NCBI RefSeq assembly: GCF_030013595.1
Contig: NZ_CP122768.1
DNA: 64,000 bases
Direction: 5' to 3' (one strand)
From: Escherichia coli
GTDB lineage: Bacteria; Pseudomonadota; Gammaproteobacteria; Enterobacterales; Enterobacteriaceae
This document shows, in pieces, positions 5,955-17,875 of the stretch. The notes beneath the pieces were generated by a model. It ran no database searches. It was given only the letters and a program-made list of their open reading frames with translations, and was not told where the DNA came from. The position numbers were made by a program, and so were the translations under genes. Every line of letters starts with the position of its first letter. Position 1 is the first letter of the stretch.

Positions 5955-7007
5955 ATGACAGATATTGCGCAGTTGCTTGGCAAAGACGCCGACAACCTTT
6001 TACAGCACCGTTGTATGACAATTCCTTCTGACCAGCTTTATCTCCCCGGACATGACTACGTAGACCGCGTAATGATTGACAATAATCGCCCGCCAGCGGT
6101 GTTACGTAATATGCAGACGTTGTACAACACCGGGCGTCTGGCTGGCACAGGATATCTTTCTATTCTGCCGGTTGACCAGGGCGTTGAGCACTCTGCCGGA
6201 GCTTCATTTGCTGCTAACCCGCTCTACTTTGACCCGAAAAACATTGTTGAACTGGCGATCGAAGCGGGCTGTAACTGTGTGGCATCAACTTACGGCGTGT
6301 TGGCGTCGGTATCGCGGCGCTATGCGCATCGCATTCCATTTCTCGTCAAACTTAATCACAACGAGACGCTAAGTTACCCGAATACCTACGATCAAACGCT
6401 GTATGCCAGCGTGGAGCAGGCTTTCAACATGGGCGCGGTGGCGGTTGGTGCGACTATCTATTTTGGCTCGGAAGAGTCACGTCGCCAGATTGAAGAAATT
6501 TCTGCGGCTTTTGAACGTGCGCACGAGCTGGGCATGGTGACCGTGCTGTGGGCCTATTTGCGTAACTCCGCCTTTAAGAAAGATGGCGTTGATTACCATG
6601 TTTCCGCCGACCTGACCGGTCAGGCAAACCATCTGGCGGCAACCATAGGTGCAGATATCGTCAAACAAAAAATGGCGGAAAATAACGGCGGCTATAAAGC
6701 GATTAATTACGGTTACACCGACGATCGTGTTTACAGCAAATTGACTAGCGAAAACCCGATTGATCTGGTGCGTTATCAGTTAGCTAACTGCTATATGGGC
6801 CGGGCTGGGTTGATAAACTCCGGCGGTGCTGCGGGCGGTGAAACTGACCTCAGCGATGCAGTGCGTACTGCGGTTATCAACAAACGCGCTGGCGGAATGG
6901 GGCTGATTCTTGGACGTAAGGCGTTCAAGAAATCGATGGCTGACGGCGTGAAACTGATTAACGCCGTGCAGGACGTTTATCTCGATAGCAAAATTACTAT
7001 CGCCTGA
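5955..7007 (+). CDS. fbaB: fructose-bisphosphate aldolase class I
   Basis: ORF track extends to 5883, but the internal ATG at 5955 ([19 protein letters not shown]) gives the 350-aa FbaB with a GGGAG Shine-Dalgarno 8 nt upstream. Confidence 0.88.
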
Positions 7008-7011
7008 TACG

Positions 7012-7175
7012 CCTTATACGAACAACACCACCCCGTAGGACGGATAAGGCGTTTACGCTGCATCCGGCAACCTATGCCTGATGCGACGCTGAAGCGTCTT
7101 ATCATGCCTACATAGCACTGCCACGTATGTCGGAAAAGGCGTTTACACCGCATCCGGCATAAAAACACGCGCACT
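7012..7175. repeat. REP (repetitive extragenic palindromic) elements
   Basis: Several copies of the GCCGGATGCGGCGT / CGCCTTATCCGGC-type palindromic unit between fbaB and gatY. Confidence 0.7.
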
Positions 7176-7182
7176 TTGCTAC

Positions 7183-7210
7183 GGCTTCCCTATCGGGAGG
7201 CCGTTTTTTT
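7183..7210 (+). terminator. intrinsic terminator downstream of fbaB
   Basis: GGCTTCCC-tatc-GGGAGGCC hairpin followed directly by GTTTTTTT. Confidence 0.6.
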
Positions 7211-7271
7211 GCCTTTCACACCTCGAACAATTTTCATATTGTCGTTTTGTGATCGTTATCTCGACATTTAA

Positions 7272-8196
<925 letters not shown>

Positions 8197-8197
8197 T

Positions 8198-9471
<1,274 letters not shown>

Positions 9472-9480
9472 GGACGGTAT

Positions 9481-9843
9481 ATGACTAACCTGTTTGTTCG
9501 TAGCGGAATTTCTTTTGTCGATCGTAGCGAAGTTTTAACCCATATCGGTAATGAGATGCTCGCCAAAGGTGTGGTTCATGATACCTGGCCACAGGCATTA
9601 ATTGCCAGAGAAGCAGAATTCCCTACCGGGATAATGCTTGAGCAGCACGCCATTGCAATACCGCATTGTGAGGCGATTCATGCTAAGTCGTCAGCCATTT
9701 ATCTGTTAAGGCCAACAAATAAAGTTCATTTTCAGCAAGCGGATGATGATAACGACGTGGAGGTATCGTTGGTTATTGCGTTGATTGTGGAAAATCCGCA
9801 GCAGCAATTGAAACTTTTACGCTGTTTATTTGACAAGTTATAA
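9481..9843 (+). CDS. gatA: PTS galactitol-specific EIIA component, truncated by a premature TAA
   Basis: 120-aa ORF ending at TAA 9841-9843; the same frame continues for 29 codons to a TAA at 9931-9933, giving a 150-residue product of typical EIIA size. Confidence 0.75.
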   Translation: MTNLFVRSGISFVDRSEVLTHIGNEMLAKGVVHDTWPQALIAREAEFPTGIMLEQHAIAIPHCEAIHAKSSAIYLLRPTNKVHFQQADDDNDVEVSLVIALIVENPQQQLKLLRCLFDKL

Positions 9844-9963
9844 CAGCCCGATATCGTCGAGACACTAATCACTCTTCCTGAAACCCAGTTAAAGGAATAC
9901 TTCACAAAGTATGTTTTAGATTCAGACGAATAAATCCCTCTGTAACAATAAAAAGGACTATTT

Positions 9964-10248
9964 ATGAAACGCAAGATTATTGTCGCTTGCGGAGGCGCGG
10001 TTGCGACCTCTACGATGGCGGCGGAAGAAATTAAAGAGTTGTGTCAGAATCATAATATTCCTGTTGAATTAATCCAGTGTCGGGTTAATGAAATAGAAAC
10101 CTATATGGATGGTGTGCATTTGATATGCACCACTGCCAAAGTGGATCGTAGTTTTGGCGATATTCCGTTAGTTCACGGCATGCCTTTTATTTCTGGTGTC
10201 GGTATCGAAGCATTACAAAATAAAATTCTGACTATCTTACAGGGGTGA
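9964..10248 (+). CDS. gatB: PTS galactitol-specific EIIB component
   Basis: 94-aa ORF with the cysteine-containing N-terminus ([11 protein letters not shown]) typical of EIIB. Confidence 0.9.
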
Positions 10249-10251
10249 CCT

Positions 10252-11607
10252 ATGTTTTCAGAAGTCATGCGTTATATTCTCGACCTCGGCCCTACGGTGA
10301 TGCTTCCGATTGTCATCATTATTTTTTCTAAAATATTAGGCATGAAGGCAGGCGATTGCTTTAAAGCGGGTCTGCATATCGGGATTGGCTTTGTTGGCAT
10401 TGGCCTTGTGATTGGCTTAATGCTGGATTCCATTGGTCCGGCGGCGAAAGCGATGGCGGAAAATTTCGACCTGAATCTGCATGTGGTCGATGTCGGCTGG
10501 CCGGGCTCTTCACCAATGACCTGGGCGTCGCAAATTGCGCTGGTGGCGATTCCGATTGCGATTCTGGTTAACGTGGCGATGTTACTGACCCGTATGACGC
10601 GGGTGGTAAATGTTGATATCTGGAATATCTGGCATATGACCTTCACCGGCGCGTTGCTGCATCTGGCAACCGGTTCATGGATGATAGGGATGGCAGGTGT
10701 GGTAATTCACGCGGCGTTTGTTTATAAGCTCGGCGACTGGTTTGCCCGCGATACCCGAAATTTCTTTGAGCTGGAAGGTATTGCTATTCCGCACGGTACG
10801 TCGGCGTATATGGGGCCGATTGCGGTGCTGGTCGATGCTATCATCGAGAAAATCCCAGGCGTTAACCGAATTAAATTTAGCGCCGACGATATTCAGCGCA
10901 AATTTGGTCCATTTGGCGAGCCTGTCACCGTGGGTTTTGTGATGGGGCTGATTATCGGCATCCTCGCGGGTTACGATGTCAAAGGTGTATTGCAGCTGGC
11001 GGTAAAAACGGCGGCAGTTATGCTGCTGATGCCACGGGTGATTAAACCCATCATGGATGGTTTAACGCCCATCGCTAAGCAGGCTCGTAGTCGTTTACAG
11101 GCGAAGTTCGGCGGTCAGGAGTTCCTGATTGGCCTTGATCCGGCGTTGCTGCTGGGACATACGGCGGTGGTATCGGCAAGCCTGATTTTTATCCCACTCA
11201 CCATTTTAATTGCTGTTTGTGTGCCGGGTAATCAGGTGCTGCCGTTTGGCGATCTTGCCACTATCGGCTTCTTTGTGGCGATGGCGGTCGCGGTGCATCG
11301 TGGAAATCTGTTCCGCACCTTAATCTCGGGTGTCATCATTATGAGCATCACCCTGTGGATCGCGACGCAAACTATTGGTTTGCACACCCAACTGGCGGCT
11401 AATGCTGGGGCGTTAAAAGCCGGGGGTATGGTGGCTTCAATGGATCAGGGCGGTTCTCCCATTACCTGGTTACTGATTCAGGTTTTCTCCCCGCAAAATA
11501 TTCCCGGTTTCATTATTATCGGCGCAATTTATCTTACCGGTATTTTCATGACCTGGCGTAGAGCGCGTGGTTTTATTAAACAAGAGAAAACCGTTCTCGC
11601 AGAATAA
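10252..11607 (+). CDS. gatC: PTS galactitol-specific EIIC permease
   Basis: 451-aa polytopic membrane ORF immediately after gatB. Confidence 0.9.
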   Translation: MFSEVMRYILDLGPTVMLPIVIIIFSKILGMKAGDCFKAGLHIGIGFVGIGLVIGLMLDSIGPAAKAMAENFDLNLHVVDVGWPGSSPMTWASQIALVAIPIAILVNVAMLLTRMTRVVNVDIWNIWHMTFTGALLHLATGSWMIGMAGVVIHAAFVYKLGDWFARDTRNFFELEGIAIPHGTSAYMGPIAVLVDAIIEKIPGVNRIKFSADDIQRKFGPFGEPVTVGFVMGLIIGILAGYDVKGVLQLAVKTAAVMLLMPRVIKPIMDGLTPIAKQARSRLQAKFGGQEFLIGLDPALLLGHTAVVSASLIFIPLTILIAVCVPGNQVLPFGDLATIGFFVAMAVAVHRGNLFRTLISGVIIMSITLWIATQTIGLHTQLAANAGALKAGGMVASMDQGGSPITWLLIQVFSPQNIPGFIIIGAIYLTGIFMTWRRARGFIKQEKTVLAE

Positions 11608-11654
11608 TTTTTACCTGAGGGGGAGGTTATCCCCCTTAACAATCAGGAGTTTTT

Positions 11655-12695
11655 ATGAAATCAATGGTGAATGATACTGATGGTATAGTGCGCGTTGCAG
11701 AAAGCGTCATTCCTGAAATTAAACATCAGGATGAGGTGCGGGTAAAAATTGCCAGCTCGGGCTTATGTGGTTCCGATTTACCCAGGATATTTAAAAATGG
11801 TGCACATTATTATCCAATAACGTTAGGCCATGAATTTAGCGGCTATATTGATGCGGTGGGATCCGGTGTTGATGATTTACACCCTGGCGATGCGGTTGCC
11901 TGTGTGCCGTTATTACCCTGTTTTACTTGTCCAGAGTGTTTGAAAGGGTTTTATTCCCAGTGTGCAAAATATGATTTTATTGGCTCGCGGCGTGATGGTG
12001 GATTTGCTGAATATATTGTCGTTAAGCGAAAAAATGTCTTTGCTCTACCCACGGATATGCCTATTGAGGATGGGGCTTTTATTGAGCCGATTACCGTTGG
12101 CCTGCATGCTTTTCATTTAGCGCAAGGTTGTGAGAATAAAAACGTTATTATTATTGGTGCCGGAACCATTGGCCTGCTGGCTATTCAGTGCGCTGTCGCG
12201 CTGGGAGCAAAGAGTGTGACGGCGATCGACATTAGCTCAGAAAAACTGGCACTGGCAAAATCTTTCGGTGCGATGCAAACATTTAACAGTAGCGAAATGA
12301 GCGCGCCGCAAATGCAGAGCGTTTTACGCGAACTGCGCTTTAATCAGCTTATCCTCGAGACGGCTGGCGTACCGCAAACTGTCGAACTGGCGGTAGAGAT
12401 TGCCGGTCCTCATGCCCAACTGGCGCTGGTGGGCACGTTGCATCAGGATCTGCATTTAACATCGGCAACGTTTGGCAAAATATTGCGTAAAGAGCTGACG
12501 GTTATCGGCAGTTGGATGAACTACTCCAGCCCTTGGCCGGGGCAGGAGTGGGAAACGGCGAGCCGGTTGCTGACAGAACGTAAGTTAAGCCTGGAGCCAT
12601 TAATCGCTCACCGTGGAAGCTTTGAAAGCTTCGCCCAGGCGGTGCGTGACATCGCTCGTAATGCCATGCCGGGCAAAGTGTTGCTCATTCCCTGA
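11655..12695 (+). CDS. gatD: galactitol-1-phosphate 5-dehydrogenase (zinc-dependent MDR family)
   Basis: 346-aa ORF with Zn-ADH motifs (GHEFSGY..., GAGTIGL Rossmann motif). Confidence 0.9.
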   Translation: MKSMVNDTDGIVRVAESVIPEIKHQDEVRVKIASSGLCGSDLPRIFKNGAHYYPITLGHEFSGYIDAVGSGVDDLHPGDAVACVPLLPCFTCPECLKGFYSQCAKYDFIGSRRDGGFAEYIVVKRKNVFALPTDMPIEDGAFIEPITVGLHAFHLAQGCENKNVIIIGAGTIGLLAIQCAVALGAKSVTAIDISSEKLALAKSFGAMQTFNSSEMSAPQMQSVLRELRFNQLILETAGVPQTVELAVEIAGPHAQLALVGTLHQDLHLTSATFGKILRKELTVIGSWMNYSSPWPGQEWETASRLLTERKLSLEPLIAHRGSFESFAQAVRDIARNAMPGKVLLIP

Positions 12696-12700
12696 AACCG

Positions 12701-12731
12701 CGGGCCAGCGTGATGCTGGCCCGGTATTGTG
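12701..12731 (+). terminator. candidate terminator after gatD
   Basis: Perfect 9-bp stem CGGGCCAGC / GCTGGCCCG with a 5-nt loop just after the gatD stop; weak T tract (GTATTGTG). Confidence 0.4.
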
Positions 12732-12800
12732 CAAAACAGATCATTCACCAATGGTCCCCCTTCGTTTACACTAGCCACAATTGAATATGGGTAAATGACG

Positions 12801-13574
12801 ATGAATTCATTCGAGCGAAGGAATAAGATCATCCAATTAGTGAATGAACAGGGAACCATGCTTGTTCAGGATCTGGCGGGAGTATTTGCTGCCTCGGAAG
12901 CGACAATCCGTGCCGATTTGCGCTTTCTCGAACAAAAAGGCGTGGTTACGCGCTTTCATGGCGGTGCGGCGAAAATAATGTCCGGTAATAGTGAAACCGA
13001 GACCCAGGAAGTCGGGTTTAAAGAGCGATTTCAGCTCGCCAGCGCGCCGAAAAACAGAATAGCGCAGGCGGCAGTCAAAATGATCCATGAAGGGATGACC
13101 GTTATTCTCGACAGCGGAAGTACCACAATGCTTATCGCCGAAGGATTAATGACCGCCAAAAATATCACGGTGATTACCAACAGTCTCCCGGCTGCGTTTG
13201 CCCTTTCCGAAAATAAAGACATTACTCTGGTCGTCTGCGGTGGCACGGTCCGCCATAAAACGCGATCTATGCATGGATCTATTGCTGAACGTTCCCTGCA
13301 GGATATTAATGCCGATTTAATGTTTGTCGGTGCTGATGGTATTGATGCGGTTAATGGTATTACGACCTTTAATGAGGGTTATTCCGTTAGCGGTGCGATG
13401 GTCACAGCCGCTAATAAAGTGATTGCCGTTCTCGATTCATCGAAATTTAACCGTCGCGGTTTTAATCAGGTACTGCCAATCGAAAAAATTGACATTATTA
13501 TTACCGATGATGCTGTGTCTGAGGTGGATAAACTGGCATTGCAGAAGACACGGGTGAAATTAATTACGGTGTAG
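12801..13574 (+). CDS. gatR: DeoR-family repressor of the galactitol operon (intact)
   Basis: ORF from 12795; MNSFERRNKIIQLVNEQGTMLVQDLA... is a DeoR-type HTH N-terminus; uninterrupted reading frame of about 257 aa. Confidence 0.85.
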   Translation: MNSFERRNKIIQLVNEQGTMLVQDLAGVFAASEATIRADLRFLEQKGVVTRFHGGAAKIMSGNSETETQEVGFKERFQLASAPKNRIAQAAVKMIHEGMTVILDSGSTTMLIAEGLMTAKNITVITNSLPAAFALSENKDITLVVCGGTVRHKTRSMHGSIAERSLQDINADLMFVGADGIDAVNGITTFNEGYSVSGAMVTAANKVIAVLDSSKFNRRGFNQVLPIEKIDIIITDDAVSEVDKLALQKTRVKLITV

Positions 13575-13579
13575 TATTG

Positions 13580-13640
13580 TTCTGTATGCCGGATAAGGTA
13601 TTTACACCGCATCCGGCATTACGGATTCTCCCTGGTTCAA
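13580..13640. repeat. REP element
   Basis: GCCGGATAAGG...CGCATCCGGC palindromic unit in the convergent gatR/yegS gap. Confidence 0.6.
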
Positions 13641-13655
13641 GAGAGAATAGTTTGA

Positions 13656-14555
13656 TTAACGCAATAATGGACAATCTGGTGGTAATCGACAACGCAACGC
13701 CGCCGGAAGTATTTCAATATGAAAGTTTTGTCCACTCAACGGTTCGCCATCAAGATTAAAAGTGATTTCGTGTGGGGCTTGTATATCAAACCACGACGAA
13801 GCGCCTTCGATAATATTCGGGTTATCTTCGTCAGATTTTAAGGTTGATACGAGAGCCGGAAGAATTTCATCGCCGGTAAAAATGCGCAGTTGCAGCAAGC
13901 CATCGTTAATTAACGCGTTCGGGCACAATTGTTGACCGCCACCGGCCTGACGCCCGTTACCAATACCAATGACCAGGGCGTCACCTTGCCAGTGAAAGTT
14001 TTCACCGCGGATTTCACAACGGTCCGGTTGCAGAGTATCCATACGCATTAAGCCATGAATGATGTATGAGACGCCACCCAGCGCGGCTTTTAATTTTTCC
14101 GGCGTTTCTGTGGTAATACGCGTCCCAAACCCGCCTGTCGCCATATTAATAAAACAGGTTTGTTTGTTGACCTGCGCCATATCTATCGCAATGGCATTAC
14201 CGGCAATTGCCAGTTTCAGCGCCTTATCCAGTGCCTCAGGAATCCCTACACTGGTGGCAAAATCATTGGCGGTTCCTAATGGCAAAATTCCCAGCGCGGG
14301 TATGTCATCCCCCTCACACTGAATCAACGCCGTAGAAACTTCATTAATGGTGCCATCGCCACCACCGGCAATCACCGTTGCGACGCCCAACTTCCGGGCC
14401 TCCTCTACAAATCGTGCGGCATCACCTTTCTCCCAGGTGACCCGCACATGGATCGTCATTCCTTCCTCACGCAACAGCATAATTGCTTCGCGCAAGGGTA
14501 GATTGTCAGTACTTTTGCCATTAAGAATCAGTAAGCTGGCGGGAAATTCTGCCAT
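13656..14555 (-). CDS. yegS: lipid kinase (DAGK_cat family)
   Basis: 299-aa ORF with a diacylglycerol-kinase-like catalytic region (GGDGT); recognised as YegS. Confidence 0.88.
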
Positions 14556-15427: not shown

Positions 15428-15514
15428 CTTATGCATAAAAAAATAAGCCCGTGTAAGGGAGATTACACAGGCTAAGGAGGTGGTTCCTGGTACAGCTAGC
15501 ATTTTATGGGTTAT
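15428..15514 (-). ncRNA. cyaR: Hfq-dependent small RNA CyaR (RyeE)
   Basis: Minus-strand sequence GCTGAAAAACATAACCCATAAAATGCTAGCTGTACCAGGAACCACCTCCTTAGCCTGTGTAATCTCCCTTACACGGGCTTATTTTTT matches CyaR as I recall it, including the terminator hairpin and U tract. Confidence 0.8.
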
Positions 15515-15608
15515 GTTTTTCAGCGAAACGGATGATAACCTTAATAAATGCAGCTGTATGTGATCGGTTTCTAAGAATTTTCCATCCGGGAAAAATAATC
15601 GAAATTAA

Positions 15609-17072: not shown

Positions 17073-17369
17073 TTAGCTCCAGTGTAAATGTCTGGTGGCG
17101 TCCTGGTTTTGGTTAAGGATACGAATGACGATAATTTCCCCTGGTGATTGCAGGAAATAAATGACGTGGCGTTCAAAAGGAAGAACAAAAATACCTTCGC
17201 CTAATTCAGGTCTGGGCGTACCTATATTATTGTTACTCAGAATCTGGAGAACGTCTGAAAGATGTTCCACATATCTGTCGGCTTGTGGTTCGCCGAAATG
17301 GTGATAGCTGTAATACCAGATGCCTTCTAAATCCTCATTGGCTTTTGGCATGAGTTTAATAATACGCAC
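17073..17369 (-). CDS. ParE/RelE-superfamily type II toxin
   Basis: 98-aa ORF; pattern ...ANEDLEGIWYY...PRPELGEGIFVLPFERHVIYF...IIVIRILNQNQD fits ParE-family toxins; start is 1 nt after the upstream antitoxin stop. Confidence 0.7.
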   Translation of the reverse strand: MRIIKLMPKANEDLEGIWYYSYHHFGEPQADRYVEHLSDVLQILSNNNIGTPRPELGEGIFVLPFERHVIYFLQSPGEIIVIRILNQNQDATRHLHWS

Positions 17370-17370
17370 A

Positions 17371-17622
17371 TTATTTCCTTATCCCTGCTTTCACCTTCCG
17401 TAAGAACGCGTCCTTTTCCCACGGCTGAGCTTCACCACTACTCAACCCTTCTGCGAGCATGTCACGTAACGCTTGCAGGCGAGACTCTGCTTGCTTTTCT
17501 CGAAGTAATCGCAGTGACTCACGGATCACTTCGCTTTGGGTGCGATAGTCGCCGGATTCAATTAAGGACTCGATAAATTCACGCAACTCATCGCCGAGAT
17601 CAACCGTCATCGTTCTGGCCAT
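17371..17622 (-). CDS. ParD-family (ribbon-helix-helix, COG3609-like) antitoxin
   Basis: 83 aa from the internal ATG at 17622 (MARTMTVDLGDELREFIESLIESGDYRTQSEVIRESLRLL...); ORF track begins at 17667 but that start lacks an SD. Confidence 0.7.
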   Translation of the reverse strand: MARTMTVDLGDELREFIESLIESGDYRTQSEVIRESLRLLREKQAESRLQALRDMLAEGLSSGEAQPWEKDAFLRKVKAGIRK

Positions 17623-17875
17623 TTTACGCCCGCCTGTAAGTAAAAATCTTACATCAGTGTATGTCATAAACCGGATAGCGTCACGAAAGTATTAGAAGAT
17701 ATTTTGGCACATGAACATGTTCAGGAGGATAAGTATGGGATGGTAAACAAAGAAAGCACAACGAGTGCTCGTCAGTGCCCACTATTTTAATGGCGGCGGT
17801 TACTCTTAATTATTAATAACTAAGCGTTATTTGGATATAAAGCCGGACGCCAACAACCCACGCCCGGCATCGTAA

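Follow-up and report, generated by a model that had tools for sequence, protein, structure and literature searches.

In laboratory strains of Escherichia coli K-12, the insertion of an IS element into gatR renders expression of the gat genes constitutive (PMC5850726; bioRxiv 10.64898/2026.01.05.697630; PMC10878103), which raises the question of what can be learnt when the same repressor gene is found uninterrupted in another E. coli genome. The window analysed here, a stretch of 64,000 nucleotides, carries a complete gat locus on the plus strand, where the structural genes regulated by GatR, gatYZABCD (7326..12695, +), precede gatR and the convergent yegS. A preliminary description of this DNA had presented the intact gatR as a contrast to K-12 and, together with a stop codon in gatA, as a sign of a different selective history. 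Here we ask whether the gene encodes a working repressor, whether its intactness sets this genome apart, and what a working repressor would mean for an operon in which gatA is truncated.

gatR is a single uninterrupted frame with the domains of a DeoR-type repressor

The gatR coding sequence occupies positions 12801..13574 (+) as a single uninterrupted frame of 257 codons plus stop, and the ORF listing of the window reveals neither an insertion nor a frameshift within it. The listed ORF runs from 12795 to 13574 (+) and counts 259 aa from its first ATG, which lies in frame at 12795, two codons 5' of 12801, and gives rise to the 259-aa form reported by some gene callers. The ATG at 12801, from which the protein counts 257 aa, is the RefSeq start for the identical gatR sequence in strain 2014C-3011. 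The N-terminal DeoR-type winged helix-turn-helix (HTH), the DNA-binding domain, is encoded at 12816..12974 (+) and matches HTH_DeoR (PF08220) over the full length of the Pfam model (aa 8-60, numbered on the 259-aa frame; E 1.8e-16; 60 bits, with the cut-off at 21). The C-terminal DeoRC sensor (effector-binding) domain, encoded at 13047..13508 (+), is likewise a full-length Pfam match (PF00455, aa 85-238; E 1.8e-51; 174.7 bits, with the cut-off at 31.8) and aligns to 7l6l, the solved structure of the DeoR C-terminal domain. With both the N-terminal HTH and the C-terminal DeoRC domain present, GatR belongs to the DeoR/GlpR family. The same two-domain architecture is found in the paralogues AgaR and SrlR, which are the best NCBIfam matches; however, GatR scores below the curated cut-offs of both (230.8 against 260 for AgaR, 227.5 against 350 for SrlR) and is thus neither AgaR nor SrlR.

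Orthologues of the same length, 257 aa, from other Enterobacteriaceae, Citrobacter, Enterobacter and Kosakonia among them, can be aligned to the window protein without a gap. It shares 255 of its 257 residues, again gap-free, with the GatR of E. coli HS and with the GatR reconstructed from K-12. In addition, the gene is located directly 3' of gatYZABCD and is convergent with yegS, and the frame is consistent across at least eight independent assemblies. The length of the frame, the two full family domains and the conserved synteny gatYZABCD-gatR-yegS argue against a chance frame, and the gene at 12801-13574 is, as judged by domain content, near-identity and synteny, the GatR orthologue. No structured RNAs or other features overlapping gatR were found on either strand, and we take the minus-strand ORFs inside gatR, which are short, to be mere shadows of its coding sequence. 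The preliminary description of gatR as a continuous gene of about 257 aa without an insertion was therefore right in both coordinates and length, as borne out by the ORF listing, Pfam and the gapless alignments. GatR of Salmonella Typhimurium is described, as cited in PMC7972205, as a DeoR-type repressor of the gat promoters for which the HTH is needed for repression; it comes from another species with another organisation of the gat cluster, and is set beside the window GatR by that description only.

Disruption of gatR is a peculiarity of K-12

The annotation of an MG1655 genome splits gatR into a 300-nt and a 477-nt fragment, with an IS3-family element between them. BLAST, together with inspection of the junction sequences, defines the insertion as a 1,258-bp IS3 with a 3-bp GAC target duplication, placed after codon ~100 of a gene whose two fragments jointly code for a protein identical to that of HS and which is, despite its pseudogene state, orthologous to that of the window. 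In contrast to K-12, where gat is constitutive, the window gatR is without the insertion: the GAC triplet that serves as the insertion and target-duplication site in K-12 is found uninterrupted at 13097..13099 (+), and the window GatR aligns end to end and without gaps to both K-12 fragments. Alignment to the MG1655 gatR region, which the preliminary description had named as a check, was run and revealed a continuous sequence over the K-12 IS site, with no insertion or frameshift. The K-12 element is given as IS3 (IS3E) in a 2026 preprint (bioRxiv 10.64898/2026.01.05.697630), in agreement with the genome annotation; one passage of Sousa et al. 2017 (PMC5850726) names IS1 as the K-12 gatR insertion.

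Identity between the window and K-12 is 99.1% to the left of the IS3 site (7000-13099) and 95.7% to its right (13097-13800; the 3' half of gatR and yegS), and nucleotides 438-498 of gatR contain a dense run of synonymous differences. This drop in identity within gatR resembles an old recombination mosaic, and is common to the commonest E. coli allele.

Of 5,426 complete E. coli genomes, 5,109 contain matches to a 1,005-bp query spanning gatR, and in 4,756 the region is found as one contiguous place, a test that senses large insertions or deletions only and not point lesions. A 120-bp probe for the K-12 gatR/IS3 junction matched in full in 344 of the 5,426 genomes, and the 40 genomes among the matches listed were all K-12 or laboratory-type strains, for example MG1655, C600, J53, DH5alpha and NEB 5-alpha. 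Of the 5,109 genomes having the gatR locus, 5,100 fall into either the contiguous or the K-12-junction class. At the resolution of large indels, disrupted gatR is confined to K-12, and intact gatR is the ancestral, near-universal wild-type state, of which the IS3 copy of K-12 is a peculiar exception. The window gatR is intact because this is the ancestral, near-universal state, and an intact gene, being the wild-type condition, therefore says nothing particular about this genome. While the K-12 side of the original contrast holds, in that gatR of the MG1655 type carries an IS (IS3) and three papers report gat to be constitutive there, the distinctiveness implied for the intact gene is not supported by the population counts.

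The regulatory regions of the gat operon match those of a relative with an intact operon

Upstream of gatR, ORFs and family assignments identify gatY (7326-8180, +), gatZ (8209-9471, +), a truncated gatA (9481-9843, +), gatB (9964-10248, +), gatC (10252-11607, +) and gatD (11655-12695, +). The closest relative found, referred to here as L014 (GCA_047657765.1), stands for 23 similar contigs with an intact gatA. The gatD-gatR intergenic region (12696..12800, +) is 100% identical in K-12, HS, CFSAN004176 and L014, and the region upstream of gatY (7208..7325, +), which contains the promoter, exhibits three small differences to K-12 and HS, all of which are present in L014. We rejected damage to the regulatory regions on these grounds, the gatD-gatR intergenic region being that of K-12 and HS and the variants upstream of gatY all occurring in a relative with an intact operon. 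A search for operators by repeats recovered REP-type and short AT-rich inverted repeats only, none of them common to both regulatory regions, and the literature searched described neither the operator nor the effector of E. coli GatR. A consensus scan for promoters and terminators gave no more hits than expected from shuffled sequence, and did not place a promoter 5' of gatR.

Just 3' of the gatD stop, a GC-rich hairpin with 9 bp (12701-12723; -21.1 kcal/mol, z = -2.8, no U-run) is identical in K-12 and HS and could act as an mRNA stabiliser or as a partial terminator before gatR. At the other end of the operon, a 12-bp insertion relative to K-12 and HS (7129-7140), which is also present in L014, lies in a REP-type repeat of the fbaB-gatY intergenic region, and the adjoining REP copy (7038-7108) matches Rfam naRNA4. 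Beyond yegS, the gene for the CyaR (RyeE) sRNA (15441-15526, -; Rfam 100.7 bits) is found at its expected location between yegR and yegQ, and the P2-remnant/ogrK segment that K-12 carries between these two genes is absent from the window. Two 98-aa ORFs between yegQ and yegP (17073-17667, -) correspond to a ParE/ParD toxin-antitoxin pair annotated in 2014C-3011 and L014, and this pair is absent from K-12 and HS.

A recent nonsense codon in gatA would lock the operon off

A premature TAA stop in gatA (9841..9843, +), which is present in the window sequence and in independent assemblies, replaces a codon 121 that is CAA in K-12 and in close relatives (CAA->TAA, Q121*). It removes the last 30 of the 150 residues of EIIA-Gat and leaves a 120-aa product, which is encoded in about two dozen contigs; the eight loci examined are 99.7-100% identical to the window. 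The stop is genuine and a feature of the lineage, not an artefact. The best complete-genome match to the window is only 99.7% identical across the operon, and 99.2% across 24 kb; the lineage itself is seen as draft assemblies only, at 99.97-100% identity. The match of the truncated GatA to the Pfam EIIA-2 model breaks off at position 117 of 144, and the solved homologue 1xiz can be aligned to GatA as far as residue 138. The truncation therefore takes away part of the conserved EIIA-2 fold, and the shortened protein is probably inactive.

GatR, as a DeoR-family repressor, would be expected to shut off gatYZABCD when no inducer is present. With the nonsense codon in gatA (EIIA-Gat), PTS uptake and phosphorylation of galactitol would probably be lost, and the intact GatR would then hold the remaining gat genes off, whatever the galactitol supply. 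By the general logic of DeoR-family repressors and the PTS, truncation of gatA therefore makes an operon that is locked off and uninducible more likely than one that is normally regulated; the operon is likely to be repressible, as had been proposed, and probably not inducible.

The window and L014 differ at four positions in 14,774 bp, all of which lie inside the gat structural genes and none in gatR or the flanks. In gatY the difference is A145V (7759), gatA carries G118D (GGC->GAC, 9833) and Q121* (9841), and the difference in gatD (11963) is synonymous. Each of the four is a G:C->A:T transition, and three of them affect the protein sequence. With only these four differences to a relative that has an intact gatA, the gatA stop is, on sequence divergence, very recent and arose in a gatR+ background. 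The placement of four out of four differences within the 5.37-kb gatY-gatD span has a P of 0.017 under uniformity, and a P of about 0.08, a rough estimate, given relaxed constraint after gatA inactivation; the clustering is suggestive, not compelling.

Constitutive expression in K-12 selects for loss of gat (PMC5850726; PMC10878103), and a strain in which gatR had been restored kept gat during 19 days in mice (PMC5850726). The proposal of a different selective history is supported only loosely: the stop did arise recently in a gatR+ background, unlike the constitutive route of K-12, whereas selection and drift are not separable here.

The V20M substitution is probably tolerated

The HS gatR allele restored gat regulation when placed in MG1655 (Sousa et al. 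2017, PMC5850726), and HS GatR (WP_001295426.1) is identical to the protein reconstructed from the K-12 fragments. The window and HS genes are the same gene at the same locus, with the same length and an identical upstream intergenic region, and differ by V20M and I196V among 23 nucleotide differences, the majority of them synonymous, with the highest density in the 3' half. Indeed, 20 of the 22 differing codons are synonymous, indicative of long-term purifying selection. The commonest E. coli GatR, WP_001367074.1 (CFSAN004176, LD27-1), differs from the window by a single residue (Val20 in place of Met20) and a single nucleotide in 774; I196V is of no concern, because V196 sits in this commonest allele. 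V20M is thus left as the sole lineage-restricted substitution in GatR. It is located in the winged HTH, where alignments place an ATG (Met) at codon 20 (12858..12860, +) instead of the GTG (Val) of K-12, HS and the commonest allele. The M20 allele, WP_057109781.1, is a minority form, with 203 index blocks compared with 12,073 for the common allele (~60-fold fewer).

Might V20M weaken DNA binding, such that a leaky GatR and partly constitutive gat expression have selected for loss of the pathway, including the gatA stop and the other gat changes? Position 20 is Val in 115 of 119 representatives of GatR orthologue clusters and Met in none, all four differences to L014 fall in gatYZABCD, and loss of gat is a known outcome of selection under constitutive expression, as for K-12 in the mouse gut. 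One M20 carrier, the complete genome of 2014C-3011, which has the identical gatR, has indeed suffered an IS1 insertion between gatC and gatD that truncates gatD, as well as a frameshift in gatZ. However, all seven gat genes are full length in 24 of the 25 M20-encoding contigs read, and gat lesions also accompany the V20 allele, as with IS2 and ISEc60 insertions, which are found within the gat operon of other close genomes, and with Q121* itself in the three loci L027-L029. Moreover, V to M is a conservative hydrophobic change, and across 143 diverse DeoR-family representatives the equivalent position (V 80, I 17, A 17, L 13, M 7) appears as a generic hydrophobic site at which Met occurs naturally; clustering of the four mutations is also expected from relaxed constraint once gatA had died. 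We consider leakiness through V20M to be improbable, and reject it as the main explanation for operon decay, given the intact operons of 24 of 25 carriers and the tolerance of Met in the wider family. V20M is unusual but probably tolerated, and could nevertheless have some effect on function. Near-identity to the HS allele, the identical upstream region, a probably tolerated M20 and the intact operons of its carriers make a functional repressor the best reading of the window GatR, and a likely one.

Two further accounts bear on what the intact gene signifies. One is that gatR is intact merely for lack of time, the operon being dead and the repressor free of selection, so that its intactness would be uninformative. 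The stop is indeed very recent, with zero of the four differences falling in gatR, and the remaining gat genes are still full length. This account is compatible with, rather than contrary to, intactness as the ancestral state, and the allele is common to many genomes with working-looking operons, which implies that it was under selection until recently; as an explanation in its own right it is decidedly improbable. The other account starts from the conversion of GTG to ATG by V20M: were the new ATG used as an internal start, a 238-aa GatR lacking HTH helix 1 could interfere with the full-length repressor. Gene callers have chosen this start in several assemblies (238-aa calls, annotated in L006-L010), and a weak AGGGA lies just 5' of codon 20. 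Yet this Shine-Dalgarno-like motif is not only weak but ~3 nt from the ATG, the GTG that other alleles have here would be an equally possible start, and most M20 carriers keep intact operons. Based on gene callers and sequence, codon 20 is a candidate start, and interference by a shortened GatR is very improbable. Start calls at codon 20 could also affect the mix of ATG and non-ATG starts reported for gatR (PMC11445065).

Changes at gatA codons 118-121 recur on unrelated haplotypes

The same CAA->TAA stop in gatA is found on three haplotypes: in addition to that of the window lineage, one is HS-like and another is of a third type. The HS-like carriers L027 (L027:5361) and L028 are 99.9% identical to HS and 98.6-98.8% identical to the window, and L029, which represents the third haplotype, is about 97.9% identical to both. 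All three loci have an intact gatR with V20. Flanking SNPs restrict any shared recombination patch around the stop to at most 131 bp, and recombination is with a patch of this size unlikely to explain the stop on three backgrounds. The stop was found in no complete genome searched. G118D without the stop is present, independently, in seven complete genomes, of which the one examined, ETEC O25:H16 F5505-C1 (L031), carries it on an HS-like haplotype. Other truncated forms of GatA (70, 103, 106, 109 and 115 aa) occur on hundreds of contigs, and such a number of truncations fits the gat+/gat- polymorphism discussed in the literature. The G118D change, 8 bp from the stop, also creates a perfect TTGACA in the window, followed 16 nt later by TATCGT (9830-9857); nowhere else in the operon is the resemblance to a promoter as close, and it may be due to chance.

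The presence of the stop on three haplotypes and of G118D on two, together with four recent mutations in gat genes and an untouched gatR, raises the idea that in wild E. coli with an intact gatR, selection acts in parallel on the C-terminal end of GatA, so as to shut down or alter the uptake of galactitol. We put this forward tentatively, as a rather unlikely reading, to which a mutational hotspot at codons 118-121 could be an alternative. If true, it would mean that loss of gat is favoured in regulated strains too, unlike in the 19-day mouse experiment with restored gatR.

Discussion

That wild E. coli have an intact and functional gatR and that the K-12 IS makes gat constitutive is established, and has been used experimentally. 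The observation of an intact gatR in this window is thus correct but ordinary, and carries little weight as a discovery; its value is interpretive. K-12 is the outlier, and a wild genome should not be singled out for lacking its IS. For the strain itself, the prediction is a galactitol-negative phenotype that arises through gatA and not gatR, with a repressor that is probably still working. The recurrent gatA changes in unrelated backgrounds offer a modest lead on the gat+/gat- polymorphism of gut E. coli.
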